Counted from the stretch's first letter, positions 15,082-60,539 are shown. The stretch is 64,000 nt of DNA from Escherichia coli (GCF_044324785.1 NZ_CP172127.1), one strand, 5' to 3'. Made by a program: numbers and translations. The notes: a model not told the origin generated them from the sequence alone.

Positions 15082-16176
15082 ATGGCACAACAGACTCCTT
15101 TGTACGAACAACACACGCTTTGCGGCGCTCGCATGGTGGATTTCCACGGCTGGATGATGCCGCTGCATTACGGTTCGCAAATCGACGAACATCATGCGGT
15201 ACGTACCGATGCCGGAATGTTTGATGTGTCACATATGACCATCGTCGATCTTCGCGGCAGCCGCACCCGGGAGTTTTTGCGTTATCTGCTGGCGAACGAT
15301 GTGGCGAAGCTCACCAAAAGCGGCAAAGCCCTTTACTCGGGGATGTTGAATGCCTCTGGCGGTGTGATAGATGATCTCATCGTCTACTATTTTACTGAAG
15401 ATTTCTTCCGCCTCGTTGTTAACTCCGCCACCCGCGAAAAAGACCTCTCCTGGATCACCCAACACGCTGAACCTTTCGGCATCGAAATTACCGTTCGTGA
15501 TGACCTTTCCATGATTGCCGTGCAAGGGCCGAATGCGCAGGCAAAAGCTGCCACACTGTTTAATGACGCTCAGCGTCAGGCGGTGGAAGGGATGAAACCG
15601 TTCTTTGGCGTGCAGGCGGGCGATCTGTTTATTGCCACCACTGGTTATACCGGTGAAGCGGGCTATGAAATTGCGCTGCCCAATGAAAAAGCGGCCGATT
15701 TCTGGCGTGCGCTGGTGGAAGCGGGCGTTAAGCCATGCGGCCTGGGCGCGCGTGACACGCTGCGTCTGGAAGCGGGTATGAATCTTTATGGTCAGGAGAT
15801 GGACGAAACCATCTCTCCGTTAGCCGCCAACATGGGCTGGACTATCGCTTGGGAACCGGCAGATCGTGACTTTATCGGTCGTGAAGCCCTGGAAGTGCAG
15901 CGTGAGCATGGCACAGAAAAACTGGTTGGTCTGGTGATGACCGAAAAAGGCGTGCTGCGTAATGAACTGCCGGTACGCTTTACCGATGCGCAGGGCAACC
16001 AGCATGAAGGCATTATCACCAGCGGTACTTTCTCTCCGACGCTGGGTTACAGCATTGCGCTGGCGCGCGTGCCGGAAGGTATTGGTGAAACAGCGATTGT
16101 GCAAATTCGCAACCGTGAAATGCCGGTTAAAGTGACGAAACCTGTTTTTGTGCGTAACGGTAAAGCCGTCGCGTGA
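15082..16176 (+). CDS. gcvT: glycine cleavage system T protein (aminomethyltransferase), 364 aa
   Basis: ORF 14959..16176 trimmed to ATG at 15082 with [32 protein letters not shown]. Confidence 0.9.
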
Positions 16177-43410: not shown

Positions 43411-44186
43411 ACGGCTTCCTCCCCAGCCTGTTGGCAGTCGGCATACAGGTCGGCTACCAGAACTCCCGTGATATAGCGTTTATAGGCCACGCTGCCCCGC
43501 AAATCTTCCTGCGGGAAAATGGCGTTGGCGACAGCCTGTTCAAGTGCATTGCCTTCCAGATTTTGTTTTTCAACATCGTGCAGACGCAGGGCTTTACTGG
43601 CGACGCCATCCAGCGCAATTCGCATACCGTCGTGGTCTGTCATTGCAACGGCTGCCGTCACGACGGTTAAACCTGCCTGAGAACGGCTAATTTTGCGGGT
43701 CGCACAGGTGCGATACGGATCTTTAATGATAATTTCGGTTAGCAGGCGATCGCATGGGCAGGCCAGGTACTCTTCGATTGACAGTGTTTCGCCATTGCCA
43801 AAAACCAGTTCAGCATCCAGTGCCAGCAGGACGGGAAGCAGCACAGACTCTTCCTGCCGGGCGGCGATTTCACCACCAATGGTCGACTGATTACGAACAT
43901 GGCGAGAGTAGACAAAGCCGAGGGCTTCACGCAGTGCTGCAGGAATAAATCGCGCATCACGCAGTGGCTGCAAGCGAGACATTGCGCCAATCCGCAGTGC
44001 ACCGTTATCCCAGTCAACCCAGTCCAGTTCCAGATCCTGTAAGGAAATGGCAATCTTTTTATCGGTACGGGTTGGTGTAGCGTTGAGTTTGCTGCCCCCG
44101 GCGAACCAGACGGCTTCATCCTGGTAGCGGCGCTTCAGTTCCAGCGCCTGTTCGACAGAGTCGGGCCTGAAAAATTGTTCAATCAT
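43407..44186 (-). CDS. ygfM: FAD-binding subunit (CO-dehydrogenase flavoprotein-like) partner of XdhD, 259 aa
   Basis: Full ORF; 4-nt overlap with xdhD start; FAD-binding fold AVWFAGGSKL. Confidence 0.8.
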   Translation of the reverse strand: MIEQFFRPDSVEQALELKRRYQDEAVWFAGGSKLNATPTRTDKKIAISLQDLELDWVDWDNGALRIGAMSRLQPLRDARFIPAALREALGFVYSRHVRNQSTIGGEIAARQEESVLLPVLLALDAELVFGNGETLSIEEYLACPCDRLLTEIIIKDPYRTCATRKISRSQAGLTVVTAAVAMTDHDGMRIALDGVASKALRLHDVEKQNLEGNALEQAVANAIFPQEDLRGSVAYKRYITGVLVADLYADCQQAGEEAV

Positions 44187-44236: not shown

Positions 44237-45565
44237 TTATGCCAACGCATCCATCCGACGCCACATACTGGCAGCGGCTTTTCTGGCTTGCGCATAAATG
44301 GAATCGCAATCGAAGTTAAACTGACGGTCTTCATAGACCATCACGCCATTGACCATCACGCTATGAACGCTGCCTGAGCCCATACCGAAAGCGATATGCC
44401 CGGCGATATTGTCTGCCAGCAGCGGTGTCGGCGAGTTGTAATCGCAAATGGTTAAATCGGCTTTGTAACCGGCTTCCAGAAGGCCAAATTTCGCGCCAAA
44501 GTTGCGGCTCATCAGTTCGTTGCCGTTAGCCAGTGCTTTGGCAAAACTGTCAGGCCACAGCGGACCACCCGCATCGCGATGTTTAAAGAAGGCAAATTTC
44601 ATCTCTTCAAACATGTCCGAACCAATGCCGTCCGTTCCCAACGCCAGATTGCGGATGTCGCTAAGGTGATGGTTGTAGCCGACATGGTTGTTCATGTTTG
44701 AACGGGCGTTATGCACCAGGAACGCATCGCGCTGATTGAGTAGGGCGATGTCATCTTTCGACAAGTACAGCCCATGAGCGACCAGCGTTTTGCTGTCGAT
44801 GAGATCGAATTGCGCCAGTCGTGCCAGCAGGTCTTTGCCGTACCAGTGGTGACTGTAGGAAACGTCATAAAGGTCTTCCGCAGCGTGAATATGCAAACCA
44901 CGACCTGTGGCTTTCACGGCTTCACGCAGCATCTCCAGACCGGCATCCGGCACGGTAAACGGCGCGTGAGCGCCGATATGTGCTTCCACCAGATACGGCT
45001 CGGTTGCTGCTTTCTTCGCCTCATCAATCTGACGGGCGAAGCGGATGTTTTCTTCTACACCTTCCTGCAACTCTTTGATGCCGTTGTTACGGTCAGTAGT
45101 TTCAAAACAGGTCATCGCGCGCAGGCCAACTTTTAAAAATGCGTTGCGCAATGTGGAGAGCGACCCGCCGATATACGCCGGAGAGGCATGGTGATCGATA
45201 ACCGATGTACATCCGCTCTTAATTGCTTCCAGGGTACAAATCAGTCCGCTGTAATAGAGCGACTCTTCATCAAGGGCGCGATCGAGTCGCCACCAGAGAT
45301 TTTTCAGCGTTGAGATGAAATCCGGGCAGGGGGCGATGTTTGCCATAATTCCGCGGGACAGCCCCGAGTAAAAATGGTTGTGCGAGCAGACAATTCCCGG
45401 CATCACAATCCGACCATGCATCTCTTTGTAGCTGGCATCGGGGTAGCGTTGCGTCAGGGCATCGCCGATAGCGACAATCACATCATTTTCGATGGCGATA
45501 TCAACGCCTTCCTGCACTTTCGCCGGGTGTAACTGCACTGCGGTGACATTCTTCAGAATCAACAT
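44237..45565 (-). CDS. ssnA: amidohydrolase-superfamily hydrolase (chlorohydrolase/aminohydrolase-like), 442 aa
   Basis: Metal-binding HxH (VCSHNHFYSG); full ORF. Confidence 0.85.
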   Translation of the reverse strand: MLILKNVTAVQLHPAKVQEGVDIAIENDVIVAIGDALTQRYPDASYKEMHGRIVMPGIVCSHNHFYSGLSRGIMANIAPCPDFISTLKNLWWRLDRALDEESLYYSGLICTLEAIKSGCTSVIDHHASPAYIGGSLSTLRNAFLKVGLRAMTCFETTDRNNGIKELQEGVEENIRFARQIDEAKKAATEPYLVEAHIGAHAPFTVPDAGLEMLREAVKATGRGLHIHAAEDLYDVSYSHHWYGKDLLARLAQFDLIDSKTLVAHGLYLSKDDIALLNQRDAFLVHNARSNMNNHVGYNHHLSDIRNLALGTDGIGSDMFEEMKFAFFKHRDAGGPLWPDSFAKALANGNELMSRNFGAKFGLLEAGYKADLTICDYNSPTPLLADNIAGHIAFGMGSGSVHSVMVNGVMVYEDRQFNFDCDSIYAQARKAAASMWRRMDALA

Positions 45566-45567
45566 GA

Positions 45568-48500
45568 TTACACCTCCACGCGGCCCAGCAGATAATGATG
45601 ATGCTGGTGGACATGGCTAATGATGCGGCACATATCGTTCAGCTCCGGTGGTACGTTGTTGAACTGACCTTCGCTGTCGATGTTTAACACCCAGCTTTGG
45701 TTATTCAGACGTACTCGTACCCGGCAATCTTCCACAAGGAAGCCTGGGTTGCTGCTGTTATCAAAGTCTTGCGACAGGCTGAAGACGGTGATTTTGTCTT
45801 TGTACGGTTTACCGTTCCACGGACAGAACTGAGCGCAGTTGCCGCATTCGTTACAGTAAGCGTCGAGGTGCAGCGTCTGGAAACGGTTCTGGAAGCCAGG
45901 GACCGCAATGGAGACGTTGGCGCGGTTCGGGCAGACATCCACACACTTGCTGCAAACGTAGTTACATTCAAGGCAGCGAGCAGCTTCCTGCGCGACAAAC
46001 GCATCACGATCGTCACTGTTCACCAGCGTGATAGAGATATCGCCTTTACGTTGATAGATTTCCGCCGGATTGACGTTGTTCCAGTATTTATCGTTCTGGT
46101 GGGAACGGATATTTTCCCGACTAAGGATGGCATCGGTCGCCCGACGCGCGGTTCCGACAGCAGCGACAATGGAGGATGGTCCGCGCTGTACGTCGCCGAT
46201 CATAAAGACGTCAGTCAGACGAGTTTCGCCATTATGGTCGACGTCTGGCCAGCCGTTTTTGTCCAGCGGCACGCCCATCGCATTCAGGGCTTCAGTATCC
46301 TGCTGTTCACCAATGGCGGTGATCAGGCTGTCTACATGCAGTGTTACTGTTTCGTTGGTTTCAACCGGACGGCGACGACCTTTCTCATCAGGTTCGCCAA
46401 GCGACATAACGCGCAAGGTTAAGGTGCCATCAGCATCGAAACGTTCCGGATTATTCAGGAAACGGAACTCCACGCCGTCGTGCAACGCTTCTTCATACTC
46501 TTCGCGCCATGCTGGCATCTCTTGCAGTGAACGACGGTAAACGACCGTTGCTTTTTCTACGCCTGGAACGCGTAACGCCGCACGAGCGCAGTCCATTGCC
46601 GTGTTACCCGCCCCGACAACGACCACATGTTTGCCCAGCTTGAGCGCTGTGCCCTTGTTGTATTCACGCAGGAAGGGGAGTGATTTCCAGACATTTTGGT
46701 TGTCGCCCGCCAGTTTCACACCGCTATTTTTATCAGTGCCGGTGGCAATCAGAACATAGTGGAAGCCCTGATTTTTTAACTGTTCAACGGTCAAATCGGG
46801 TGAGCAGCCATACTCAAATTTCACGCCGTGAGCGGCAACAAAATCGATATCGTGCTGAATTAACTCTGCAGGAATACGGAACTGAGGAATGATATTTTTC
46901 ACCACGCCGCCCGCATTGGCTTCGCGTTCAAACAGCGTAACCGGATGGCCCGCTCTGGCAAGGAAGTAACCTGCTGCCAGACCCGCCGGACCTGCACCAA
47001 TCACGGCAACCGGATGGCGTGAACCAGAACCGGCTGGTTTGTGCCAGCGTTGCTTATATTCATCCCAACCTTTTTCCAGCGCGACTTTTTTCAGTTCGCG
47101 GATATTCAGCGCACTGTCGTAATCCAGGCGGGTACAGTTGTATTGGCACTGGTGATCGCAAATATGACCGGTAATGGCGGGCAGGGCGTTGCGTTGGTAG
47201 ATGAGTTCCAGTGCGTCGGCATAGCGGTGTTCGCCAAGCAGACGGATGTATTCCGGAATATCCTGTTTAATGGCGCAAGCAGTAACGCACGGTGCAACGT
47301 AGCAGTCGGTCAGCGGCAGGTCTTCTGCCACTTCAATACGCTCTTCTGGCTTCCAGTGTTTCTGAGTGTATTCCATGGTTAACGCGTCTGCTGCCAGTTT
47401 GTTCAGTCGTTCGACGTCAACATGGTCAAGCCCCCAGGCGTCGGAGCCTTCCAGCTCGCGCATGCAGGCACTTAAGCGCAGATAGCCGCCAGGTTTCAGC
47501 AGGTCGGTTGCCATCGTGATAGGGCGAATACCAGTATCAAAAATATCGCGGATAGTCAGCTGACTGGCACCACCGGAATAAGAAATGGGCAGTTTGCCGT
47601 CAAAGGCGCGAGAGAGAACTGCTGCAACATTGATGGAGAGCGGGAACAGCGCACGGCCTGACATATACATCTCTTCACCAGGCAGTGCGCCTTTATTGTT
47701 GATGGTGCCGAGAGTGTTAGTCAGTTTTACGCCAAAGCCGAGTGATTTTTCTTTTGCCAGTGCCATCAGACGTTCCAGCATTTCCAGTGCTTGCGTCAGC
47801 TTGAGGTCGTGATCAAATGACTCTTCTTTTAAGCCTATGTAACCGAAACCGCAGACATCGAGGATCTCACGAACACGCGCGTACCCCAGTAAGGTCGGGT
47901 TGAGTTTCACAAAGGTATTGAGCCCTTTTTCTTCCAGCATGTAGCGGCAAATGGCTTCGATTTCATGCGGAGGACAGCCGTGCATGGTGGAGAGGGTGAC
48001 GCCCTGCACCATGCTGGTGGGGATGCGAGCGGGTAAGGCTTGCAAGCTTTCGCGTTTTTCCTGCAATCCGTGGCGGGCTAAAAATGCGTCATCCTGGAGT
48101 AATTTATTCAGCGTATCGCGATATTGAGCGAATTTCGGATGGTCAGATGCGTCCATCATATTGTCGATGAACTGTTGCATCGGCGGTTGCTTAATACCTT
48201 CGAGGTTGTAACCGACGCTCATATTAAAGATGAACGATTTACCGGAATCAGAAGGCTGGAACATCGCTTCGAGAAGGTGCAGGGCAAACCAGGCTTTGAG
48301 GTATTCATCCCAGGCTTTAAGCAGGGTAAATTCGGTGGACCATTCGGTGTTAAAGCACTCGTCTTCGGCATCAATACAGGGCTTTTCCAGCTCCAGGCGG
48401 TCAAGAATTTGGACGGTTTTTAGTTCGATGAAGCGTCCGCCAGTCAGCCAGGAAGTGACAATATTTTGCGCGAGCTGCGTGTGCGGGCCAGCGGCAGGGC

Positions 48501-48666
48501 CGACGGGAGTGGCACAGGTTTCACCGAAGACGCTAACAGTTTTACCTTTTACGGGTGAGTAAAACTGTTGCTCGGGAATACCAAAGATTGAGCGTTGTTG
48601 TTGGTATTCATCAAATATGCGCGTCAAAAGTTCCTCAAACGGAATGGGACGCATAATATCCCCCAT
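45568..48666 (-). CDS. ygfK: large Fe-S flavoprotein oxidoreductase (GltD/dihydropyrimidine-dehydrogenase-like with 4Fe-4S clusters), 1032 aa
   Basis: Dinucleotide fingerprints [28 protein letters not shown] and VVVVGAGNTAMDCARAAL; ferredoxin motifs CLECNYVCSKCVDVCP and CNECGNCAQFCP; AGGAG RBS. Confidence 0.85.
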   Translation of the reverse strand: MGDIMRPIPFEELLTRIFDEYQQQRSIFGIPEQQFYSPVKGKTVSVFGETCATPVGPAAGPHTQLAQNIVTSWLTGGRFIELKTVQILDRLELEKPCIDAEDECFNTEWSTEFTLLKAWDEYLKAWFALHLLEAMFQPSDSGKSFIFNMSVGYNLEGIKQPPMQQFIDNMMDASDHPKFAQYRDTLNKLLQDDAFLARHGLQEKRESLQALPARIPTSMVQGVTLSTMHGCPPHEIEAICRYMLEEKGLNTFVKLNPTLLGYARVREILDVCGFGYIGLKEESFDHDLKLTQALEMLERLMALAKEKSLGFGVKLTNTLGTINNKGALPGEEMYMSGRALFPLSINVAAVLSRAFDGKLPISYSGGASQLTIRDIFDTGIRPITMATDLLKPGGYLRLSACMRELEGSDAWGLDHVDVERLNKLAADALTMEYTQKHWKPEERIEVAEDLPLTDCYVAPCVTACAIKQDIPEYIRLLGEHRYADALELIYQRNALPAITGHICDHQCQYNCTRLDYDSALNIRELKKVALEKGWDEYKQRWHKPAGSGSRHPVAVIGAGPAGLAAGYFLARAGHPVTLFEREANAGGVVKNIIPQFRIPAELIQHDIDFVAAHGVKFEYGCSPDLTVEQLKNQGFHYVLIATGTDKNSGVKLAGDNQNVWKSLPFLREYNKGTALKLGKHVVVVGAGNTAMDCARAALRVPGVEKATVVYRRSLQEMPAWREEYEEALHDGVEFRFLNNPERFDADGTLTLRVMSLGEPDEKGRRRPVETNETVTLHVDSLITAIGEQQDTEALNAMGVPLDKNGWPDVDHNGETRLTDVFMIGDVQRGPSSIVAAVGTARRATDAILSRENIRSHQNDKYWNNVNPAEIYQRKGDISITLVNSDDRDAFVAQEAARCLECNYVCSKCVDVCPNRANVSIAVPGFQNRFQTLHLDAYCNECGNCAQFCPWNGKPYKDKITVFSLSQDFDNSSNPGFLVEDCRVRVRLNNQSWVLNIDSEGQFNNVPPELNDMCRIISHVHQHHHYLLGRVEV

Positions 48667-48987: not shown

Positions 48988-49566
48988 CTAAATTTCAGTA
49001 TACCTTTTTTTCGCTGTAATAAAGTCGTCCGGAGTATCAATATCTAAAATTATTTCTGCATTTTCTATTTCGACGGAATAATGTTCTCCCATAAGGAGTG
49101 CCTGACGCATATTGGTGATATTGGGACGCTGGATTGCCTGCATCAGGCATGGCTTTGACACTAAAATCGGATGGCCGGGAATGCCATTATGGAGTGGCAG
49201 TATTGCGCCATCATTTCGTAACGACCAGATTTTCCTAAAAATATCGATGGTGAGGGTAGGCATGTCACCGTGGGTGAGAAAACAATATTCTGTTTGTACC
49301 GCGGGTACTGCGGCCTTTACTGATGTTAGTAAACCCTGTGCATAATCTGGGTTATGGATAATAGTGATATTGCTCTGGTTCGCATAACGCTTGTGCAGTT
49401 CATTACCACGATAGCCGGTGACTAAAATAATTCGGCTACAAAACTGCAACGCATTTTTGATACTTGTATCAAGAATTGTTCCCTGTTGCCAGGGTAACAT
49501 CATTTTCCATTGCCCCATTCTTGATGATAATCCGGCAGCGGTAATTATACAGTCGATGGCTGACAT
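48988..49566 (-). CDS. mocA: molybdenum cofactor cytidylyltransferase (MobA-like nucleotidyltransferase), 192 aa
   Basis: N-terminal ITAAGLSSRMG nucleotidyltransferase motif; full ORF. Confidence 0.85.
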   Translation of the reverse strand: MSAIDCIITAAGLSSRMGQWKMMLPWQQGTILDTSIKNALQFCSRIILVTGYRGNELHKRYANQSNITIIHNPDYAQGLLTSVKAAVPAVQTEYCFLTHGDMPTLTIDIFRKIWSLRNDGAILPLHNGIPGHPILVSKPCLMQAIQRPNITNMRQALLMGEHYSVEIENAEIILDIDTPDDFITAKKRYTEI

Positions 49567-49668: not shown

Positions 49669-50439
49669 GTGAAAAGTATAGTTGACCCATCGGCATTATT
49701 CATTGATTTAGGCGCGCAGAAACGTCCCACTGTGATTTCTGTTGTTGGGGCTGGGGGGAAAACCAGCTTGCTTTTTTGGCTGGCAGAACTGATCCAGGCT
49801 AGCGGCAGGCGTGTGTTAATCACTACGACGACACATATGTTTATGCCAACGTCTCACTGGCCCGTGGTTTTCTGTCGTGATCCCGCCATGCTTCCTCATG
49901 CGTCTCTTACATCCCCCATTTCATTTTGTTTTCACAGCTGGAAAGCGAACCAGGGAAAAGTGCAGGGATTTATGCCAGAAGCGATTGATGCACTGGTGCA
50001 ACGACCAGAGTGTGACGTAATTCTCATTGAGGCAGATGGCTCGCGTGGAATGCCGTTAAAAGCGCCTGATGAGCACGAACCTTGCATACCCAAAAGCAGT
50101 TGCTGCGTGATTGCTGTGATGGGAGGACATATTTTGGGCGCGAAAGTGAGCACAGAAAATGTCCATCGCTGGTCGCAGTTTGCTGATATTACCGGGTTAA
50201 CACCTGATGCAACCTTGCAACTGAGCGATCTCGTTGCGCTGGTTCGCCACCCTCAGGGCGCATTTAAAAACGTACCGCAAGGTTGTCGGCGAGTCTGGTT
50301 CATTAACCGTTTTTCTCAATGTGAGAATGCGATTGCGCAAAGCGAGCTCCTTCAACCGCTGCAACAACACGACGTAGAGGCAATCTGGCTGGGCGATATA
50401 CAAGAACATCCTGCAATCGCGCGCAGATTTGTGAATTAG
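49669..50439 (+). CDS. yqeC: P-loop protein YqeC (selenium-dependent molybdenum hydroxylase accessory family), 256 aa
   Basis: GTG start; Walker-A-like VVGAGGKTSLL. Confidence 0.8.
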   Translation: MKSIVDPSALFIDLGAQKRPTVISVVGAGGKTSLLFWLAELIQASGRRVLITTTTHMFMPTSHWPVVFCRDPAMLPHASLTSPISFCFHSWKANQGKVQGFMPEAIDALVQRPECDVILIEADGSRGMPLKAPDEHEPCIPKSSCCVIAVMGGHILGAKVSTENVHRWSQFADITGLTPDATLQLSDLVALVRHPQGAFKNVPQGCRRVWFINRFSQCENAIAQSELLQPLQQHDVEAIWLGDIQEHPAIARRFVN

Positions 50440-50486: not shown

Positions 50487-52112
50487 ATGAATATTTTCAC
50501 AGAGGCTGCAAAACTCGAAGAGCAAAATTGTCCGTTTGCGATGGCGCAAATTGTTGATAGCCGAGGCTCGACTCCCCGCCATTCTGCACAAATGTTAGTG
50601 CGCGCCGATGGCTCTATCGTCGGTACAATTGGTGGCGGAATGGTTGAGCGGAAGGTGATTGAAGAGTCGCTTCAGGCATTGCAGGAGCGTAAGCCGCGAT
50701 TATTCCATGGACGTATGGCTCGTAACGGTGCGGATGCTGTCGGGTCAGATTGTGGAGGTGCAATGTCAGTATTTATCAGCGTCCATGGTATGCGTCCACG
50801 TCTGGTGTTGATTGGCGCGGGGCATGTCAACCGGGCGATAGCCCAGAGTGCGGCGCTATTAGGATTTGATATTGCCGTTGCTGATATTTATCGCGAAAGC
50901 CTCAATCCTGAACTATTCCCACCATCAACCACGCTTCTCCATGCTGAGTCGTTTGGTGCAGCAGTGGAAGCACTGGATATTCGCCCTGATAATTTTGTCC
51001 TGATTGCCACGAATAATCAGGATCGTGAAGCCCTCGACAAACTCATTGAACAGCCCATTGCATGGTTGGGGTTGCTGGCAAGTCGTCGCAAGGTTCAGCT
51101 TTTCCTGCGTCAATTGCGTGAGAAAGGCGTGGCTGAAGAACATATTGCCCGTTTACATGCGCCCGTTGGTTACAACATAGGTGCGGAAACGCCGCAGGAG
51201 ATCGCCATCAGCGTGCTGGCAGAAATATTACAGGTGAAAAATAACGCGCCGGGTGGGCTGATGATGAAACCTTCTCATCCTTCCGGACACCAGCTGGTGG
51301 TGATTCGCGGTGCGGGAGATATCGCCAGTGGTGTGGCGCTACGTCTGTATCATGCGGGTTTTAAAGTGATCATGCTGGAAGTGGAAAAACCGACAGTGAT
51401 TCGTTGTACCGTGGCGTTTGCCCAGGCCGTGTTCGATGGCGAAATGACGGTCGAAGGCGTCACTGCCCGCCTGGCAACCAGCTCTGCGGAAGCGATGAAA
51501 CTTACCGAACGCGGATTCATCCCTGTGATGGTAGATCCCGCCTGTTCATTGCTTGATGAACTGAAACCGCTTTGCGTGGTGGACGCTATTCTGGCGAAAC
51601 AGAATTTGGGTACGCGGGCAGATATGGCACCAGTAACAATCGCGCTTGGGCCGGGCTTTACTGCTGGGAAGGATTGCCATGCGGTAATTGAAACAAATCG
51701 CGGGCACTGGCTCGGTCAGGTGATTTACTCTGGTTGTGCGCAGGAGAATACCGGTGTTCCCGGCAATATTATGGGGCATACCACCCGACGGGTGATCCGT
51801 GCTCCTGCTGCAGGCATTATGCGATCCAACGTGAAATTAGGCGATCTGGTGAAAGAGGGCGATGTGATTGCCTGGATTGGTGAGCATGAAATTAAAGCAC
51901 CGTTGACGGGGATGGTGCGTGGCTTGTTGAACGACGGACTGGCGGTGGTCGGTGGTTTTAAAATTGGTGATATCGATCCACGTGGTGAAACGGCTGATTT
52001 CACCAGCGTTTCTGATAAAGCCCGGGCAATTGGCGGCGGCGTACTTGAGGCGTTAATGATGTTGATGCATCAGGGCGTGAAAGCGACAAAAGAAGTGCTG
52101 GAAGTGGCTTAA
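50487..52112 (+). CDS. yqeB: XdhC/CoxI-family maturation protein with two Rossmann-like domains, 541 aa
   Basis: LVLIGAGHVNRAIA and VVIRGAGDIASGVA dinucleotide-like motifs; full ORF. Confidence 0.8.
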   Translation: MNIFTEAAKLEEQNCPFAMAQIVDSRGSTPRHSAQMLVRADGSIVGTIGGGMVERKVIEESLQALQERKPRLFHGRMARNGADAVGSDCGGAMSVFISVHGMRPRLVLIGAGHVNRAIAQSAALLGFDIAVADIYRESLNPELFPPSTTLLHAESFGAAVEALDIRPDNFVLIATNNQDREALDKLIEQPIAWLGLLASRRKVQLFLRQLREKGVAEEHIARLHAPVGYNIGAETPQEIAISVLAEILQVKNNAPGGLMMKPSHPSGHQLVVIRGAGDIASGVALRLYHAGFKVIMLEVEKPTVIRCTVAFAQAVFDGEMTVEGVTARLATSSAEAMKLTERGFIPVMVDPACSLLDELKPLCVVDAILAKQNLGTRADMAPVTIALGPGFTAGKDCHAVIETNRGHWLGQVIYSGCAQENTGVPGNIMGHTTRRVIRAPAAGIMRSNVKLGDLVKEGDVIAWIGEHEIKAPLTGMVRGLLNDGLAVVGGFKIGDIDPRGETADFTSVSDKARAIGGGVLEALMMLMHQGVKATKEVLEVA

Positions 52113-52120
52113 ATGAAAAT

Positions 52121-52146
52121 GGCCGGATGGTATTACCCACCCGGCC
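52121..52146. terminator. hairpin between convergent yqeB and yqeA
   Basis: GGCCGG...CCGGCC inverted repeat flanked by A/T. Confidence 0.45.
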
Positions 52147-52152
52147 TTTAAA

Positions 52153-53085
52153 TTACTGACAAATCACCGTTCCGGTTTTGCCTTCAATCCCTTCTTTCGC
52201 TTTGCTCAATACGGTAATCAGTGCTTCACGACCTGCGCGAGAGCGAGCAAACGAGGCGGCAGCTTCCACTTTAGGCAGCATAGAACCTTTCGCAAAATGA
52301 CCTTCTTCGATAAAGCGTTCAGCATCACTTAATGACAGGCGATCGAGCCACTGTTCATTCTCTTTACCGAAGTTAATGGCCACTTTTTCTACCGCAGTCA
52401 GAATGATCAGCATATCGGCATCAATCATCTCTGCTAAACGGGCGCTGGCCCAGTCTTTATCAATAACCGCGCTGGCACCACGCAGATGGTTACCTTCACG
52501 AATAACAGGAATACCACCACCGCCAACGGTGATCACTACCTGGCCTGCATCTACCAGAGCTTTAACCGTTTCTTTTTCAATGATATCAACCGGTTTTGGC
52601 GAGGCAACAACACGGCGATAGCCGCGACCAGCATCTTCTTTCAGAGTGTAACCCTGTTTTGTCAGTTGCTCTGCTTCCTGCTCGGTAAAGAACGAACCGA
52701 TCGGCTTGGTCGGGTTGAGGAATGCCGGATCGTTAGCATCGACTTCGACCTGGGTAACCAGCGTTGCTACAGGTTTATTAATGCCACGAGAAAGCAGTTC
52801 TTCTCTTAAGGCGTTTTGTAGATCGTAACCAATATAGCCCTGGCTTAAGGCAACACAGACAGACATCGGCAGCATTGGCGAGTGCGCTTCAGTTTTTGCG
52901 GCAGCTTCAAAGGCCTGGTTAATCATGCCCACCTGTGGCCCGTTACCATGAGTGACGATGACCTCATGTCCCTGGGCAATTAAATCAACAATTGCCTGAG
53001 AAGTAATTTTTACCGCTTTCATTTGTCCGGCCAGGTCGTCGCCCAGCGCATTCCCGCCCAGGGCGAGAACAATTTTCTTACTCAT
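52153..53085 (-). CDS. yqeA: carbamate kinase-like protein, 310 aa
   Basis: Amino-acid-kinase family N-terminus MSKKIVLALGGNALG; full ORF. Confidence 0.85.
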   Translation of the reverse strand: MSKKIVLALGGNALGDDLAGQMKAVKITSQAIVDLIAQGHEVIVTHGNGPQVGMINQAFEAAAKTEAHSPMLPMSVCVALSQGYIGYDLQNALREELLSRGINKPVATLVTQVEVDANDPAFLNPTKPIGSFFTEQEAEQLTKQGYTLKEDAGRGYRRVVASPKPVDIIEKETVKALVDAGQVVITVGGGGIPVIREGNHLRGASAVIDKDWASARLAEMIDADMLIILTAVEKVAINFGKENEQWLDRLSLSDAERFIEEGHFAKGSMLPKVEAAASFARSRAGREALITVLSKAKEGIEGKTGTVICQ

Positions 53086-53132
53086 TTTTCCTCACTCATC
53101 ATTCTTGATTGTGTATAGATCCCTGGCAGTGG

Positions 53133-54518
53133 TTAGAGCACGGGAGGGACAAACGGTTTGCGTCGCAGGAATCGACCTCGCCCGGCTTTGCCTGTAAAGG
53201 TGCCGTCACAGAAAATCGTTTCACCACGGGATAAGGTTCTGACAATCGCGCCCTGACAGGTAAAACCCTCCCATGGCGAATAGTCAGCGTTGTCGTGGAG
53301 ATGGCGATGCTGAATTTGTTGGCTCTGACGTGGGTCGATAATCACCACGTCGCCATCGGAACCGGGCGCTAATAATCCTTTTTGCGGCCACAGGCCAAAC
53401 AGCCTGGCGGGCATCGCGCTGGTTAATTCAACAAAACGTTCCGGTGTTATACGTCCCGTCATTACGCCACTGGAAAACAGTAACTGCATGCGGTTTTCCA
53501 CACCGGGTAAGCCATTTGGGCAGCGACTGAAATCGCCTTTAGAAATTTGCAGGCGTTGAGCCATTGAGAACGTGCAGTGATCGGTCGCCACCACGTCAAT
53601 CGCACCATCGCTGATGCCACACCACAGTTTGTCCTGCTCGCGTACGTTACGCAGCGGTGGGCTAAGAATGAACTTCATGCCATCTTCTGTATCGTAACTG
53701 CGTTCGTCCAACAGGAGATATTGTGGGCAGGTTTCAACCCAGACTGGCTGGTGATTCGCACGGGCAAGACGCAGATAATCCAGACCTAAGCCGTTAGACA
53801 GGTGCACGATATAGAGCGGGGCGTTACCGGCAATTTGTGCCAGGTTAATCATGCGGGCGATGGCTTCCGCTTCGCATTCCAGAGGGCGACTCAAGGCGTG
53901 ATAGCGCGGCGCGGTTAACCCTGCGGCGATAAACTCCGCCCGCTTGCTGGCGATAGCTGCATCATTTTCCGGGTGCACGGTGGTCAGCGCGCCGGACTCA
54001 TGCAAGCGGCGTAACGCCTGCAAAACCTCGTCATCGTTGAGTTTGTATTGATAGGTTAAATAGAGTTTAAAACTGCTCAGTCCTTCTTCGACCATCATCG
54101 GAATTTCGTCGAGGATGGCGTGATTAATGTGCTGGATCACACCGTGAAAGCTGTAGTCGATGACCGCCTTATGGGCGGCATAGCCACGATAAACCTCCAG
54201 TTGATGGCGTAACCGACAGCCGTTTGGGCCAAATCCCATATGGTCAATAATGGTTGTTGTACCGCCACACGCAGCTGCGCGGGTACCGGTAAAAAAATCA
54301 TCACAACTGCGCGCGATGCCGACATCAATATTGAAATGCGTATGGACATCCACGCCGCCAGGGAAAACGTAACAGCCAGTGGCATCAATTTCTTCATACG
54401 GGAGCTGCGGCGAAATATTGTTGCCCAACTGGCGAACAATCCCGCTTTCAATCAGCAAATCCTGTTTGGCTTGTCCATCTGCGTTAACGACAGTGCCGTT
54501 TTTGATCAATACGCGCAT
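53133..54518 (-). CDS. hyuA: cyclic amidohydrolase (D-hydantoinase/dihydropyrimidinase family), 461 aa
   Basis: ORF 53133..54530 trimmed to MRVLIKNGTVVNADG with GGAG RBS; metal-binding GGVDVHTHF. Confidence 0.85.
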   Translation of the reverse strand: MRVLIKNGTVVNADGQAKQDLLIESGIVRQLGNNISPQLPYEEIDATGCYVFPGGVDVHTHFNIDVGIARSCDDFFTGTRAAACGGTTTIIDHMGFGPNGCRLRHQLEVYRGYAAHKAVIDYSFHGVIQHINHAILDEIPMMVEEGLSSFKLYLTYQYKLNDDEVLQALRRLHESGALTTVHPENDAAIASKRAEFIAAGLTAPRYHALSRPLECEAEAIARMINLAQIAGNAPLYIVHLSNGLGLDYLRLARANHQPVWVETCPQYLLLDERSYDTEDGMKFILSPPLRNVREQDKLWCGISDGAIDVVATDHCTFSMAQRLQISKGDFSRCPNGLPGVENRMQLLFSSGVMTGRITPERFVELTSAMPARLFGLWPQKGLLAPGSDGDVVIIDPRQSQQIQHRHLHDNADYSPWEGFTCQGAIVRTLSRGETIFCDGTFTGKAGRGRFLRRKPFVPPVL

Positions 54519-54528
54519 AGCAAACTCC

Positions 54529-54553
54529 AAAAACCCTCCGGCGAACCGGAGGG
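54529..54553 (-). terminator. terminator-like hairpin (CCCTCCGG-ttcg-CCGGAGGG + UUUUU) between ygeY and hyuA, U-tract abutting the hyuA RBS
   Basis: Read directly on minus strand: CCCTCCGGTTCGCCGGAGGGTTTTTGGAGTTTGCTATG. Confidence 0.5.
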
Positions 54554-54570
54554 GAATAAGTGAAGAGTAA

Positions 54571-55782
54571 TTATTCGGTTGCCAGCCAGCTTAACGGGAT
54601 TGCAGCGTACATCGCGGCACAGGTCACCAGGTGAGATTTCCAGGTTTTTTCGTTAGGTGCATGCGCTTCAGGTTCTTTACCCGGGCCAAAGCCGATCACC
54701 GGAATGCCGTGACGGCCCATGATAGATACGCCGTTAGTTGAGAAGGTCCACTTATCAACAACCGGCGCTTTGCCAAACAGCCCTTCGTAGGCATTCACCA
54801 GTGCTTTAACGGTGAAGTGATCTTCTTCCACTTTCCAGGTCGGGAAGTAGCATTCGGTTGGGTAAACCAGGCCAGTCCAGGACGGACGGTCGTAGTTGTA
54901 CATAGAAACAACCGCGTTAGCTTTCTGTACTGCAGGCAGGGCGCGGATTTCGTCCAGCGCGCCTTCCCAGGTTTCGCCCCAGGTCAGACGGCGGTCAATA
55001 GAGACGGCGCAGCTATCTGCTACTGCGCAACGGCTTGGGGATGTGAAGAAGATTTCAGAAACGGTGAGGGTGCCTTTGCCGAGGAATTCGTCATAACCCA
55101 GACGTTGGGAGAGTTCTTGTAATTCGCCAAGAATCGGACCCATTTTGAAAATGGCGTTGTCACCGCGTTCTGGTGCAGAACCGTGGCAGCTAACACCCTG
55201 AACATCAATACGAATTTCCATACGACCGCGTTGACCACGGTATACCTGGCAATCAGTCGGTTCAGTACTGACCACAAATTCCGGGCGAATGCCGGATTGT
55301 TCAATAATGTACTGCCAGCACAGACCGTCGCAGTCTTCTTCCTGCACCGTACCGGTAACCAGCAGGGTATATTCATCTTCCAGACCGAGGTCTTTAATGA
55401 TTTTACCGGCATAAACCATAGAGGCCATGCCGCCTTCCTGGTCGGAAGTACCGCGACCACCGATCAGTTCATCAGTTTCCATGCCTTCGTACGGATCGAA
55501 GTCCCAGTTTTTGATGTTGCCAATGCCGACGGTATCAATATGAGCGTCCATTGCCACCAGACGCGGGCCGTGGCCGATATAACCGAGAACGTTGCCCATC
55601 GGGTCGATTTCAACTTTATCGAAGCCGACTTTTTCCATCTCTTCTTTAATACGATGTACTACGCGTTTTTCATCGCAGCTTTCACTGGGAATAGCAACCA
55701 TATCGCGCAGAAAGCGAGTCATGTCTGCCTGGTAATCTTTTGCTTTTTCAAGAATCAGTTTGAATGGAATATTCTTAGCCAT
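54571..55782 (-). CDS. ygeY: M20-family metallopeptidase/deacylase (ArgE/DapE-like), 403 aa
   Basis: Full ORF; M20 family features (e.g. HIDTVG). Confidence 0.85.
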
Positions 55783-55839
55783 TATTTTTCTCCAGATTTT
55801 TTACTCCCCGTTTTGCGGGGAGCAGTTCCAATAGGGTGA

Positions 55840-57036
55840 TTAAGGTGCTACAGCGTGTTTGCCTTCCCAGACAACTTCGCGGTAGTGCTTCACGTCTGTG
55901 TCGCCTTCAGTGCTGATAACCAGCACTACGGCATCTTTGTTCAGCGCCAGTTTTTCCATCAGGCTTTGACGTTGCGGGTGATAATGAACCGCTGCGAGAA
56001 CGCCCAAACCGACAGCGCCAGATTCACCGGAGATGATGCGTGGATCGTTGCCGTACGGATTACCCAGTACGCGCATACCTAATGCGGCAACGCTGTCCTG
56101 GCAGGAGATGAATTGGGTGGCGCAGTTACGTAGGATTTCCCAGCCCAGCGGGTTAGGTTCGCCACAGGCCAGGCCTGCCATGATGGTGGCCATATCACCG
56201 CCAACGTTGACGATGTCGCCTTTGACGCCAGAGCGATAAATACAGTCAGCTTTGTCAGGTTCAACAATAATGCTGTGCAGATTTTGCGGGCTGTAGACGT
56301 CGACCAGATAACCCAGCACACCACCAGCCATTGCACCGACACCGGCTTGCAGCAGAACGTGCGTCGGGGTTACGCCCATTTCACGCATTTGCTCGACGGC
56401 TTCATCTGCCAGTGTTGCGTAGCCTTGCATGATCCAGGTTGGGATTTTGGTGTAACCTTCCCAGGCGGTATCTTGCACCACTTCCCAGCCGTGCTGCTGC
56501 GCGTGTTGCATGGTCAGGCGAACGGTATCGTCATAGTTCATATCCGTGACGATGCACTCGGCACCGAGGTTCAGAATGGCGTCAACGCGTTCCTGAGCAG
56601 AACCTTTCGGCATGTAAATCACCGCATTCTGTCCGAGTTGCTGTGCTGCCCACGCCACACCGCGCCCGTGGTTGCCGTCGGTGGTGGTCGCGAAAGTCAT
56701 TTTTTCGCCGATGGCATTTTTCAGGTGCTCAAATGACAGCGTTTCGATATCAAGATGATATTTTTCGCACAATAATTGAGCGATGGCGTATGCACCGCCG
56801 AGCATTTTGAAGGCGTTCAGACCGAATCGTTTTGATTCGTCTTTGACGAGAATTTTCTTCACACCAAAAAGGTTTGCGAGATCGTCCAGCGCACAAAGCG
56901 GTGTTGGGCGATAACCAGCAATTTTCTGGTGGAACTGGCGCGCCAGTTTGGCCTGGCTTTGCGAAAAGAGCGGTGATGTTTCGCCGTTGAAAAATTTGTT
57001 ATCGGCGATATCAATCTTCAATGAGAAAACGGACAT
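55840..57036 (-). CDS. ygeX: PLP-dependent 2,3-diaminopropionate ammonia-lyase, 398 aa
   Basis: Fold-type-II PLP motif around SKRFGLNAFKMLGG; full ORF; synonym dpaL. Confidence 0.85.
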   Translation of the reverse strand: MSVFSLKIDIADNKFFNGETSPLFSQSQAKLARQFHQKIAGYRPTPLCALDDLANLFGVKKILVKDESKRFGLNAFKMLGGAYAIAQLLCEKYHLDIETLSFEHLKNAIGEKMTFATTTDGNHGRGVAWAAQQLGQNAVIYMPKGSAQERVDAILNLGAECIVTDMNYDDTVRLTMQHAQQHGWEVVQDTAWEGYTKIPTWIMQGYATLADEAVEQMREMGVTPTHVLLQAGVGAMAGGVLGYLVDVYSPQNLHSIIVEPDKADCIYRSGVKGDIVNVGGDMATIMAGLACGEPNPLGWEILRNCATQFISCQDSVAALGMRVLGNPYGNDPRIISGESGAVGLGVLAAVHYHPQRQSLMEKLALNKDAVVLVISTEGDTDVKHYREVVWEGKHAVAP

Positions 57037-57093
57037 ATCCTATCCTTTTGGCCTCTGGAAATAGAGGGCCGACCAGCTGATCGGCCCGAGGGG

Positions 57094-58284
57094 TTATTTC
57101 ACGCGTTCTTGCGCTTCTTTCAGCAGTTGCTCGAGCAGTGCACCTGGTTTGGCGTATTTACGGGACAGGATCATCGCGGCGATGATATAAGGCTTCCAGC
57201 TGGCTTCTTTGTAGGTCGCGATACGGTATTTTTCGAATACGCCTTCAGTCACTTCACCTTCTTTGCAGGATACGCCGCTGATATCAGCTGGCAGGCAGTG
57301 CATGTACAGGGCTTCGCCATCACGGGTCAGTTCCATCATCTCTTCGGTGCAATGCCAGTCTTTGTGCTGAGCGTTCTGCGCCAGACACTGTTTTTCCAGT
57401 GCTTTTAAGCCTTCGTGATCGTTAGCGCGCAGCAATTCAGTACGCTCTTCCATCACTTTGTAAGGTGCCCATGACTTCGGATAAACGATGTCTGCGTCTT
57501 TGAAGGCTTCTTCCATGCTGGTGACCTGACGGAAGCTACCGCCGGAGGCTTTAGCATTGTTTTTAGCGACTTCAACGACATCCGGGATCAGGTCGTAGCC
57601 TTCCGGATGGGCCAGGGTGACATCCATACCGAAGCGAGTCATCAGACCGATGATGCCTTGTGGTACAGAGAGCGGTTTGCCATAGCTTGGGGAGTAGGCC
57701 CAGGTCATGGCGATTTTTTTACCTTTCAGGTTTTCCAGTGAACCAAAGTGTTCACGTAACCATGCGAGGTCAGCCATTGACTGAGTCGGGTGGTCAATAT
57801 CGCATTGCAGGTTCACTAAAGCCGGACGCTGCGGCAGTACGCCCTGCTTGTAGCCGTCATCAAGTGCAGCGCCAACTTCACGCATATAAGCGTTGCCTGC
57901 GCCCAGATACATATCGTCACGAATACCGATGGCATCGGCGCAGAAGGAGATCATATTGGCGGTTTCACGCACGGTTTCGCCGTGAGCGATTTGTGATTTG
58001 CCTTCGTCGAGATCTTGCTGTGCAAGGCCGAGCAGGTTAAGCGCGGAAGCATAAGAGAAGCGGGTACGGGTGGAGTTGTCGCGGAATACGGAAATACCTA
58101 ATCCACTATTAAAGACTTTGGTTGAGATGTTTTCAGCACGCAGTGCTTTTAATGCTGCGGCAACGTCCAGTACTTGTTTCAGTTCATCTGGCGTCTGTTC
58201 CCACGTTAACAAAAAATCTTTCTCGTGAAGGTGAGAGGTCAGCGAATTGATATCCTTAATCAGCTCATTAACAGTTTTCATCAT
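57094..58284 (-). CDS. ygeW: carbamoyltransferase (ATCase/OTCase family) of unknown substrate, 396 aa
   Basis: Carbamoyl-phosphate-binding STRTR motif and HCLP motif both present. Confidence 0.85.
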   Translation of the reverse strand: MMKTVNELIKDINSLTSHLHEKDFLLTWEQTPDELKQVLDVAAALKALRAENISTKVFNSGLGISVFRDNSTRTRFSYASALNLLGLAQQDLDEGKSQIAHGETVRETANMISFCADAIGIRDDMYLGAGNAYMREVGAALDDGYKQGVLPQRPALVNLQCDIDHPTQSMADLAWLREHFGSLENLKGKKIAMTWAYSPSYGKPLSVPQGIIGLMTRFGMDVTLAHPEGYDLIPDVVEVAKNNAKASGGSFRQVTSMEEAFKDADIVYPKSWAPYKVMEERTELLRANDHEGLKALEKQCLAQNAQHKDWHCTEEMMELTRDGEALYMHCLPADISGVSCKEGEVTEGVFEKYRIATYKEASWKPYIIAAMILSRKYAKPGALLEQLLKEAQERVK

Positions 58285-58760
58285 AAAGTCCCGGTAGTGG
58301 AATGACAGGCAAAGAGGTTTATTTCACTGTGACTTGCCAAAAGTGATTGGTCTTTTCACAGCTATACCTGGGACTAACAATAACTATGCCAGAATTATCC
58401 AAGCGGCTGCAAAAGACTAATTTGACGGGTAATGTGTGGGGTTGATCACAAATTGATGCCAGCTTCTGGTTGTTTGTAAAATACGAAAACGTTTGGCTTT
58501 TTTTATCGCGTTATTTATTTGCTGCTAAGTATCAGAAATAAGATAAAGGGGCAGGTTATCCCTCGTCAGTTTGATAAACTCACCGCCGTAATTCTCATAT
58601 TGATATAGAAATGTGATATCTCTTCCATAATTTCATTAGAAAGTGATAAAAATCTTATGTTTTTATCAAAGCCAATTTCGTCTGAGTTAATATCATCATG
58701 ATCTGTGAACCATCAACGTCTTCAATGATCGACTTTTAAGTAAGTCTGGAAGGTAAAGCT

Positions 58761-60539
58761 ATGGAGCTTGCTACTACGCAGTCAGTACTGATGCAAATTC
58801 AACCGACAATTCAGCGTTTTGCCAGAATGCTTGCCAGCGTTTTGCAGCTTGAGGTTGAGATCGTTGATGAAAACTTGTGTCGCGTCGCCGGAACGGGCGC
58901 GTATGGGAAGTTTCTTGGTCGCCAGTTGAGCGGCAACTCACGCCTGCTCCGCCACGTCCTGGAAACGAAAACTGAAAAAGTTGTGACACAATCTCGCTTC
59001 GATCCCCTTTGCGAAGGTTGCGATAGTAAAGAAAATTGCCGTGAAAAAGCATTTCTGGGTACGCCTGTCATTTTACAGGATCGTTGTGTTGGGGTGATAA
59101 GTTTGATTGCCGTTACCCACGAGCAACAAGAACATATCAGTGATAATTTACGCGAATTTTCTGATTACGTTCGCCATATATCCACCATTTTTGTTTCGAA
59201 ACTTCTGGAGGATCAGGGGCCAGGAGATAACATCAGTAAAATATTCGCGACCATGATCGATAATATGGATCAGGGCGTATTAGTTGTTGATGATGAAAGT
59301 CGGGTTCAGTTTGTTAATCAGACTGCCTTAAAAACACTCGGTGTTGTGCAAAATAATATTATTGGGAAACCTATCCGTTTCAGACCATTAACATTTGAGA
59401 GTAATTTTACCCATGGACATATGCAGCATATTGTTTCGTGGGACGATAAAAGTGAATTAATCATTGGTCAATTGCATAACATTCAGGGCCGACAATTATT
59501 TTTAATGGCGTTTCACCAATCGCATACCAGTTTTTCTGTAGCAAATGCACCTGATGAACCGCATATTGAACAATTGGTTGGCGAGTGCCGTGTTATGCGG
59601 CAATTAAAACGACTCATTAGCCGTATTGCACCCAGCCCATCCAGCGTTATGGTGGTTGGTGAAAGCGGCACGGGTAAAGAAGTCGTCGCCCGTGCAATCC
59701 ATAAGTTGAGCGGAAGACGGAATAAACCTTTTATTGCTATCAACTGTGCCGCGATTCCGGAGCAGCTTCTGGAGAGCGAACTGTTCGGTTATGTTAAAGG
59801 CGCATTTACTGGCGCTTCTGCCAACGGTAAAACAGGGTTGATTCAGGCGGCGAATACGGGCACGCTGTTTCTCGATGAAATAGGTGATATGCCATTAATG
59901 TTGCAGGCTAAATTACTGCGCGCTATTGAGGCGCGTGAAATTCTGCCGATTGGTGCCAGTAGCCCAATACAAGTCGACATCCGCATCATTTCTGCAACTA
60001 ATCAGAATTTGGCCCAGTTCATTGCCGAAGGTAAATTCCGCGAAGATCTCTTCTACCGACTTAATGTTATCCCGATAACTCTTCCACCGCTGCGTGAACG
60101 TCAGGAAGATATTGAACTACTAGTGCATTACTTTTTACATCTGCATACCCGTCGTCTGGGATCGGTTTATCCTGGCATTGCTCCTGATGTCGTCGAAATA
60201 TTGCGTAAGCATCGTTGGCCCGGAAACCTGCGCGAGTTAAGCAATTTGATGGAATATCTGGTTAACGTTGTTCCTTCAGGTGAAGTTATCGATAGCACGC
60301 TATTGCCGCCAAATCTGCTGAATAATGGCACAACGGAACAAAGTGATGTAACAGAGGTCAGCGAGGCGCACCTCGCACTCGATGATGCGGGCGGCACGGC
60401 GCTGGAGGAGATGGAAAAGCAAATGATCCGCGAGGCGCTTTCACGTCATAACAGCAAGAAGCAAGTTGCTGATGAACTGGGCATCGGCATTGCTACGCTC
60501 TATCGCAAGATTAAAAAATATGAGTTGTTAAACACATAA
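58761..60539 (+). CDS. ygeV: sigma54-dependent transcriptional activator (bEBP) with N-terminal sensor domain, 592 aa
   Basis: Walker A GESGTGKE, sigma54-contact GAFTGA, C-terminal HTH IGIATLYRKIKKY. Confidence 0.9.
   Translation: MELATTQSVLMQIQPTIQRFARMLASVLQLEVEIVDENLCRVAGTGAYGKFLGRQLSGNSRLLRHVLETKTEKVVTQSRFDPLCEGCDSKENCREKAFLGTPVILQDRCVGVISLIAVTHEQQEHISDNLREFSDYVRHISTIFVSKLLEDQGPGDNISKIFATMIDNMDQGVLVVDDESRVQFVNQTALKTLGVVQNNIIGKPIRFRPLTFESNFTHGHMQHIVSWDDKSELIIGQLHNIQGRQLFLMAFHQSHTSFSVANAPDEPHIEQLVGECRVMRQLKRLISRIAPSPSSVMVVGESGTGKEVVARAIHKLSGRRNKPFIAINCAAIPEQLLESELFGYVKGAFTGASANGKTGLIQAANTGTLFLDEIGDMPLMLQAKLLRAIEAREILPIGASSPIQVDIRIISATNQNLAQFIAEGKFREDLFYRLNVIPITLPPLRERQEDIELLVHYFLHLHTRRLGSVYPGIAPDVVEILRKHRWPGNLRELSNLMEYLVNVVPSGEVIDSTLLPPNLLNNGTTEQSDVTEVSEAHLALDDAGGTALEEMEKQMIREALSRHNSKKQVADELGIGIATLYRKIKKYELLNT

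Follow-up and report, generated by a model that had tools for sequence, protein, structure and literature searches.

The ygeW-ygeX-ygeY-hyuA-yqeA block of Escherichia coli, very probably the lower half of a pathway for anaerobic uric-acid degradation

The five consecutive genes ygeW, ygeX, ygeY, hyuA and yqeA of Escherichia coli encode a carbamoyltransferase, an ammonia-lyase, an M20 amidohydrolase, a hydantoinase and a carbamate kinase, and the question that the locus raises is which compound these enzymes take apart together and whether they recover energy in doing so. We have considered this question for the copy of the block carried on a stretch of 64,000 nucleotides from one E. coli genome (GCF_044324785.1, NZ_CP172127.1), the whole of which is referred to here as the window. 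An earlier note, made from the sequence alone, had read the five genes as a module for an ATP-yielding carbamoyl fermentation acting on unknown substrates. The ATP-yielding carbamoyl interpretation is supported; the statement about the substrates is outdated, as these were identified in 2025 by Li et al. (PMC12507026) and by Liu et al. (bioRxiv 10.1101/2025.04.24.650524). We are highly confident that these genes make up the lower half of the reductive ("2,8-dioxopurine") route by which E. coli degrades uric acid anaerobically, a route that is already known for these very proteins, having been published in 2025 and foreshadowed in 2013 and 2022.

The module had been placed at 52153-58284, and the list of open reading frames (ORFs) bears this out with five consecutive, intact and co-directional frames whose outer limits match exactly. 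The gene order also stands as it was given, although its description as the operon order needs the correction that the genes lie on the minus strand and read from 58284 down to 52153. The intergenic gaps, from ygeW through yqeA, measure 57, 57, 52 and 47 nt, and the mechanical ORF of hyuA extends to a TTG at 54530, beyond the annotated ATG. RefSeq annotates the block as ygeW, dpaL (ygeX), ygeY, hyuA and arcC (yqeA). By megablast, the block is present at a coverage of at least 80% in 5161 of 5426 complete E. coli genomes, with a best identity of 99.2%. The YgeW, YgeX, YgeY and YqeA proteins are 100% identical to those of K-12 MG1655, and HyuA departs from its K-12 counterpart by a single residue (I142M). 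Within the coding DNA of the five genes, 109 of 5919 positions differ from K-12 MG1655 and all but one of these differences (108 of the 109) are synonymous, an unusually strict conservation, which indicates strong purifying selection on the five genes. With four of the proteins identical and HyuA one residue off, the published enzyme assays on the MG1655 proteins apply directly to those of the window. The wide presence of the block in E. coli, its near-identity to K-12 and its synteny elsewhere put it far beyond chance.

Protein families were assigned with NCBIfam profiles at their curated cut-offs, and all five enzyme classes come out above these cut-offs, as the earlier note had named them. 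YgeW matches NF005538 at 825 bits (cut-off 453) and TIGR03316 at 675 bits (cut-off 500), and it falls below the cut-offs for ornithine carbamoyltransferase (OTC; 133 versus 281 bits), aspartate carbamoyltransferase (ATCase; 75 versus 263) and N-acetyl-OTC (129 versus 288). YgeX is matched by the diaminopropionate ammonia-lyase profile TIGR03528 (651 bits, cut-off 532), YgeY by TIGR03526 (722 bits, cut-off 321.5), HyuA by the D-hydantoinase/dihydropyrimidinase profile TIGR02033 (675 bits, cut-off 393) and YqeA by the carbamate kinase profile TIGR00746 (386 bits, cut-off 358). Among solved structures, YgeW matches chain A of PDB 3q98 over residues 1-396 with 898 bits; this is the YgeW structure, which the title of its paper describes as knotted, and through this match and its identity to K-12 YgeW the window protein can be expected to have a trefoil-knotted fold. 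YgeX matches PDB 4d9g at 912 bits, HyuA and YqeA both have close relatives among the solved structures (for YqeA the nearest is 1b7b, at 305 bits), and the same kind of search with YgeY returned no structure at E < 1e-20.

The motifs expected of these families are in place. The STRTR and HCLP motifs of YgeW, which had been reported as intact, are found at residues 71 and 329, and together with HPTQ at residue 165 they constitute the carbamoyl-phosphate binding motifs. YgeX carries NAFKMLGG from residue 74, and lysine 77 within it is presumably the lysine that holds pyridoxal phosphate (PLP). In YgeY, we take AHIDTV at 80, SDQEGG at 113, QEED at 147 and EAHAPNE at 372 to be the M20 metal-ligand motifs, and in HyuA we assume that HTH at 59, SSFKLY at 148, VHPEN at 181, VHLS at 238 and TDHC at 312 supply the binuclear-metal ligands of cyclic amidohydrolases, namely HxH, the carboxylated Lys, His, His and Asp. 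The sequences GNGPQVG at 47 and GGGGIP at 188 of YqeA would presumably form the glycine-rich nucleotide/phosphate loops of carbamate kinase.

What these enzymes do in succession is known from two independent reconstitutions of the pathway with the same K-12 enzymes, by Li et al. 2025 (PMC12507026) and Liu et al. 2025 (bioRxiv 10.1101/2025.04.24.650524). According to Li et al. (PMC12507026), XdhD-YgfM reduces urate to 2,8-dioxopurine ("yanthine"), YgfK and SsnA yield ureidomethyl-hydantoin with minor 5-ureido-dihydrouracil, and HyuA converts both of these to 2,3-diureidopropionate, which is the opening of a cyclic ureide with release of an N-carbamoyl compound that the earlier note had proposed. 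The same authors found that HyuA, YgeW and phosphate together give a mono-ureido product that co-elutes with albizziin, and that YgeY and YgeX turn albizziin into pyruvate. YgeW is thus active on a ureido compound, 2,3-diureidopropionate, from which it removes one ureido group with phosphate, as had been supposed for the carbamoyl transfer. The ATP that had been expected from carbamoyl phosphate was demonstrated by Liu et al. (bioRxiv 10.1101/2025.04.24.650524), in whose assays YgeW, YqeA, ADP and Mg formed ATP while the diureido compound was converted to the mono-ureido compound, and who reconstituted the conversion of urate to pyruvate in vitro with a yield of ~50%. The predicted deamination of the remaining diamino acid has likewise been observed, in that YgeX acts on free 2,3-diaminopropionate to give pyruvate and diaminopropionate builds up in ygeX mutants. 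Mutants in these genes are blocked in the conversion of urate to acetate, and the intermediates of the pathway derive from 13C-urate. A tie between the K-12 cluster b2870-b2874 and purine catabolism had already been drawn in a bioinformatic paper of 2013 (Barba et al. 2013, PMC4016543). Published experiments have demonstrated the steps from HyuA to YgeX using enzymes identical in sequence to those of the window, apart from the one residue in HyuA.

Carried over to the window, the scheme begins with the upper half of the pathway, in which XdhD-YgfM converts urate to 2,8-dioxopurine, and YgfK and SsnA reduce this compound and open its six-membered ring to give 5-(ureidomethyl)hydantoin. HyuA then hydrolyses the hydantoin ring to 2,3-diureidopropionate, and YgeW moves one of the two carbamoyl groups onto phosphate, leaving YqeA to convert the resulting carbamoyl phosphate and ADP to ATP, NH3 and CO2 and, by doing so, to pull the unfavourable phosphorolysis forward. 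The ureido group that is left is hydrolysed by YgeY, and YgeX converts the resulting 2,3-diaminopropionate to pyruvate and two NH3. The order of the chemistry had been laid out in much this way before, the point to be corrected being that YgeY, the M20 enzyme, acts after YgeW. One ATP per urate is gained from the carbamoyl group, and more may be gained from pyruvate via acetate; the second ureido group is lost to hydrolysis by YgeY, so that ATP is recovered from only one of the two carbamoyl groups. Carbamoyltransferases have their equilibrium on the side of carbamoylation, and the catabolic direction needs removal of the product, for example by coupling to carbamate kinase (Barba et al. 2013, PMC4016543), which makes the coupling of YgeW to YqeA mechanistically important. 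Li et al. (PMC12507026) obtained a smaller product peak with YgeW than they did with UacY, a hydrolase, and explained it by phosphorolysis being thermodynamically less favourable.

Table 1. Genes and sequence elements of the block and its surroundings, in window coordinates
Feature	Coordinates	Strand	Remarks
ygeW	57094-58284	minus	396 aa; carbamoyltransferase, predicted to be knotted
ygeX/dpaL	55840-57036	minus	398 aa; PLP-dependent 2,3-diaminopropionate ammonia-lyase
ygeY	54571-55782	minus	403 aa; M20 metallo-amidohydrolase
hyuA	53133-54518	minus	461 aa from annotated ATG; D-hydantoinase/dihydropyrimidinase
yqeA/arcC	52153-53085	minus	310 aa; carbamate kinase
Stem-loop, ygeW/ygeX gap	57066-57087	minus	9-bp G+C-rich stem
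Stem-loop, ygeX/ygeY gap	55802-55824	minus	9-bp stem, z = -3.35
Terminator-like stem-loop, ygeY/hyuA gap	54534-54553	minus	8-bp stem then UUUUUGG
Terminator hairpin after yqeA, shared with convergent yqeB	52121-52146	minus	10-bp stem, -22.6 kcal/mol, z = -4.55, then AUUUUCAUUU
Sigma-54-type -24/-12 element TGGCATAGTTATTGTT	58376-58391	minus	107 nt upstream of ygeW ATG; putative module promoter
CRP-like site TGTGATCAACCCCACA	58435-58450	minus	~50 nt upstream of the -24 element of ygeW
xdhD	40540-43410	minus	TIGR03313, 2120 bits
ygfM	43407-44186	minus	TIGR03312, 488 bits
ssnA	44237-45565	minus	TIGR03314, 739 bits
ygfK	45568-48666	minus	TIGR03315, 1782 bits
mocA	48988-49566	minus	Mo/Se (molybdenum/selenium) cofactor-maturation gene; TIGR03310 above cut-off
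yqeC	49669-50439	plus	Mo/Se cofactor-maturation gene; TIGR03172 above cut-off
yqeB	50487-52112	plus	Mo/Se cofactor-maturation gene; TIGR03309 above cut-off; convergent with yqeA
ygeV	58761-60539	plus	Sigma-54 enhancer-binding activator, divergent; sigma-54 activator families match residues 260-590

The expression of the module is linked to that of the purine genes, as the earlier note had anticipated. Published co-expression data place ygeWXY and hyuA in the YgeV iModulon together with xdhABC, xdhD, ygfK, ssnA, ygfT and uacT; homologues of ygeW, ygeX and ygeY are induced by uric acid in C. sporogenes, in L. saccharolyticum and in C. aerofaciens, all three of them gut bacteria, and ygfK and ygfT are so induced in E. 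coli. YgeV is the presumed regulator of the module. At the place of the sigma-54-type element of the window (Table 1), K-12 has TGGCACACTTATTGTT, with two base changes, and elements of the same type stand upstream of ygeW in Aeromonas (TGGCACGCTTATTGAT, at -123) and in Arsenophonus (TGGCATGCTTATTGAT, at -104). The site resembling that of the cyclic AMP receptor protein (CRP), TGTGATCAACCCCACA, aligns with TGTGATTATTATCACG in Arsenophonus and agrees with the native Crp site in the ygeV-ygeW gap and the repression of the pathway by glucose that were reported by Li et al. (PMC12507026). To judge by these motifs, the promoter would depend on YgeV and sigma-54 and receive input from CRP. When the ygeV-ygeW gap was searched for inverted repeats, one weak palindrome (58478-58503) and no convincing upstream activator site for YgeV came to light, and an Rfam scan of 51900-58900, with E values up to 1, returned no known riboswitch or leader. 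A further sigma-54-like element, TGGTGCGATTGTTGCT, was seen on the minus strand at 48754-48739, 73 nt upstream of the start of ygfK (48666), and would fit with the upper-pathway operon too being under the control of YgeV/sigma-54.

Stable stem-loops occupy three of the four internal gaps of the module. Aeromonas and Arsenophonus also have stem-loops, unrelated in sequence, at the places that follow ygeW and ygeY, and their ygeY/hyuA gap has 12-bp stems at the equivalent position; the stem-loop between ygeX and ygeY is present in Aeromonas and absent in Arsenophonus. Such conservation of position suggests a conserved control of termination or of mRNA stability between the genes, and the stem-loops may partly subdivide the transcript. 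The gap between yqeA and yqeB (52113-52152) holds one hairpin and no insert in the window, and in K-12 MG1655 an insert of ~179 bp lies between the two genes, with a copy of the terminator hairpin AGGCCGGGTGGGTAATACCATCCGGCC on either side; a length difference at this place was seen also in some other E. coli genomes. In sequence the K-12 insert resembles the repetitive extragenic palindrome (REP) and bacterial interspersed mosaic element (BIME) sequences of E. coli.

Several points weigh against the assignment to uric-acid degradation or against parts of it. The two reconstitution papers are at odds over the mono-ureido intermediate, and according to a commentary no kinetic constants have been published. 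With terminator-like hairpins at ygeW/ygeX and ygeY/hyuA, the five genes may not form a single operon. When the whole window was scanned for the sigma-54 consensus, 2 mismatches being allowed, there were 45 matches against 44 expected, that is, no enrichment, and the -12 part of the motif upstream of ygeW is non-consensus (TTGTT); as the number of motifs is that of chance, only the fact that the element upstream of ygeW keeps its place across three genera carries weight. Two other functions have been considered for the block. The genes could form a general operon for the utilisation of D-hydantoins and dihydropyrimidines, or of exogenous diaminopropionate, whose link to purines is one of position only, a role that would suit the annotation of HyuA as a D-phenylhydantoinase, its passing of the dihydropyrimidinase equivalog model and the activity of YgeX on free diaminopropionate. 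We regard this as very improbable, given that E. coli does not grow on diaminopropionate, that the mutant and 13C-urate data described above connect these genes to urate, that they are co-regulated with xdh, ygfK and ssnA, and that they remain clustered with genes of the urate pathway across phyla. It is scarcely credible, to an even greater degree, that YgeW and YqeA are the oxamate carbamoyltransferase and carbamate kinase of the anaerobic allantoin (oxalurate) route, an analogy which the earlier note had drawn and which has in its favour an equal enzyme logic, a purine-related location and the related catabolic carbamoyltransferases in purine clusters discussed by Barba et al. 2013 (PMC4016543). 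The substrate demonstrated for YgeW is, however, 2,3-diureidopropionate, and neither allantoin nor oxalurate is among the published intermediates of the pathway. The allantoin genes of E. coli, moreover, have a carbamate kinase of their own and lie at another locus, which counts against that route.

Within the uric-acid pathway itself, the published accounts part over which of the two ureido groups YgeW takes. After the action of HyuA, the 2-ureido group should carry C8 of urate and the 3-ureido group C2, since it is the purine's imidazolone ring that becomes the hydantoin ring, and to go by the published structures the diaminopropionate skeleton would represent C4-C5-C6. The mono-ureido product of YgeW is albizziin, with the 2-ureido group removed, in Li et al. 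(PMC12507026), and 3-amino-2-ureidopropanoate, with the 3-ureido group removed, in Liu et al. (bioRxiv 10.1101/2025.04.24.650524); Percudani's commentary lists the regiochemistry as unresolved, and in the later literature that we searched no paper settling it was found. We lean slightly toward the view that the 2-ureido group is removed and that albizziin is the intermediate. Commercial albizziin co-elutes with the YgeW product and is turned to pyruvate by YgeY and YgeX, and in C. difficile a D-aminoacylase homologue (UacY), from which removal of the N-alpha group is expected, replaces YgeW and YqeA and would leave the 3-ureido group to an orthologous YgeY (PMC12507026). The opposite regiochemistry, in which the same pathway would proceed by removal of the 3-ureido group (C2 of urate) to (R)-3-amino-2-ureidopropanoate and YgeY would be an N-alpha-carbamoyl-amino-acid amidohydrolase, seems to us to have somewhat less than an even chance. 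Liu et al. (bioRxiv 10.1101/2025.04.24.650524) assigned their compound UA-6 to 3-amino-2-ureidopropanoate from its retention time, mass and fragmentation in comparison with a synthesised standard, although that standard was an unseparated carbamoylation mixture. Two family affinities also speak for it and weakly against albizziin, in that YgeW is closer to OTC (133 bits) and N-acetyl-OTC (129 bits), which act on distal amines, than to ATCase (75 bits), and the nearest characterised relatives of YgeY, the N-alpha-deacylases ArgE and DapE, take off N-alpha acyl groups. An attempt to settle the matter by family affinities was rejected as too indirect and as conflicting with the argument from UacY of C. 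difficile. We think it rather unlikely that the order of removal is not fixed, with YgeW and YgeY each taking either group of the near-symmetrical 2,3-diureidopropionate and with the block serving as a self-contained cassette also for non-urate substrates (albizziin, 5-substituted hydantoins, diaminopropionate) in which the position-conserved stem-loops set the ratios of the enzymes; if true, such use of either group would explain the contradiction between the two reconstitution papers.

The assignment of the block to uric-acid degradation can also be viewed against homologous loci in other bacteria. In Aeromonas and Arsenophonus the five genes stand in the identical order, W-X-Y-hyuA-carbamate kinase, with protein identities of 69-88% (85-88% for YgeW in global alignments). 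The gene for a sigma-54 activator lies immediately upstream of ygeW in both, on the same strand in Aeromonas and divergent in Arsenophonus, and yqeB, yqeC, mocA and ygfK are found downstream of the module. Among the 120 best database matches, which include Klebsiella, Aeromonas, Morganella, Serratia, Arsenophonus and Salmonella, YgeW is 85-92% identical. The five genes are reordered, as X-Y-W-carbamate kinase-(mocA-like)-hyuA, in a locus whose flanking sortase and pilin genes suggest that it comes from a Gram-positive organism, and its YgeW is 61% identical in global alignment and 63% identical over the matched stretch; that the gene set is kept though the order has changed argues for functional coupling. 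YgeW homologues at 35-47% identity lie on short contigs or in unrelated contexts and probably belong to another subfamily, and no such clusters were found with homologues at or below 40% identity.

Two observations were made in passing on these homologues. The Gram-positive-type locus has a RidA-family (PF01042) gene after hyuA, at 14927-15313 of that locus, whose product may remove the reactive enamine/imine arising from diaminopropionate ammonia-lyase. Metagenomic representatives include two predicted fusions, YgeW-YgeY (963 aa, P0128) and SsnA-YgeW (773 aa, P0145), which could be genuine, and would then support a functional link, or could be artefacts of gene calling.

The upper half of the pathway is encoded in the same window. 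The genes xdhD-ygfM, ygfK and ssnA and the genes for the selenium and molybdenum cofactors are co-located with the module, all with matches above their cut-offs, and mocA, yqeC and yqeB sit between the upper and lower halves of the pathway. The genes for YgfT and for a urate/xanthine permease are present and intact, and xdhCBA is present and reaches past the end of the window. The possibility that xdhA is a pseudogene, suggested by its entry of 649 aa from a GTG in the ORF list, was dismissed, as its in-frame translation is open to the window end.

The pathway as published allows E. coli and many gut anaerobes to dispose of urate secreted by the host, with a gain of ATP and an advantage in gut fitness, and probiotics against hyperuricaemia and gout are being engineered to carry it. 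What the present analysis adds is that this strain has an intact copy under strong purifying selection, together with some minor new observations, namely the position-conserved sigma-54-type promoter with its CRP-like site, the position-conserved stem-loops and the REP-insertion polymorphism near yqeA. The scientific interest that remains is narrow and concerns which ureido group YgeW takes, what signal YgeV senses and what the intergenic stem-loops do.

The nearest of the known systems is the b2870-b2874 cluster of K-12, which is the same locus with the same gene order, neighbours and, but for the one residue of HyuA, proteins; it differs from the window by ~2% synonymous nucleotide divergence, by the two changes in the sigma-54 element and by the 179-bp REP-type insert, which the window lacks. 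The block works like the arginine deiminase pathway (ArcA, the catabolic OTC ArcB and the carbamate kinase ArcC), a comparison drawn in the earlier note and also by Liu et al. (bioRxiv 10.1101/2025.04.24.650524), in that phosphorolysis of a ureido compound is coupled to carbamate kinase for the substrate-level formation of ATP, but it is not a member of that pathway: it contains no deiminase, YgeW falls below the OTC cut-off, and the ureido donor is 2,3-diureidopropionate from ring opening, the second ureido group of which is merely hydrolysed. The ureidoglycine carbamoyltransferase of Rubrobacter xylanophilus (PMC4016543) and the oxalurate/oxamate route share with the block a catabolic carbamoyltransferase that adjoins a carbamate kinase in a purine cluster and takes its carbamoyl group from a ureido or diureido acid; they differ in lying downstream of oxidative uricolysis (allantoin, allantoate), in using a carbamoyltransferase of a different subfamily and in having no hydantoinase, M20 or diaminopropionate-lyase steps. 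The reductive pyrimidine (Pyd) pathway and the industrial "hydantoinase process" are alike in that they use a cyclic amidohydrolase to open a reduced ureide ring and afterwards an amidohydrolase to take off the N-carbamoyl group, and HyuA itself passes the dihydropyrimidinase model; Li et al. (PMC12507026) point to a relationship of SsnA, YgfK and UacX with PydB and PydA. Unlike either of these, the block conserves one carbamoyl group as carbamoyl phosphate and ATP, and its carbon skeleton ends as pyruvate through the action of a PLP lyase.

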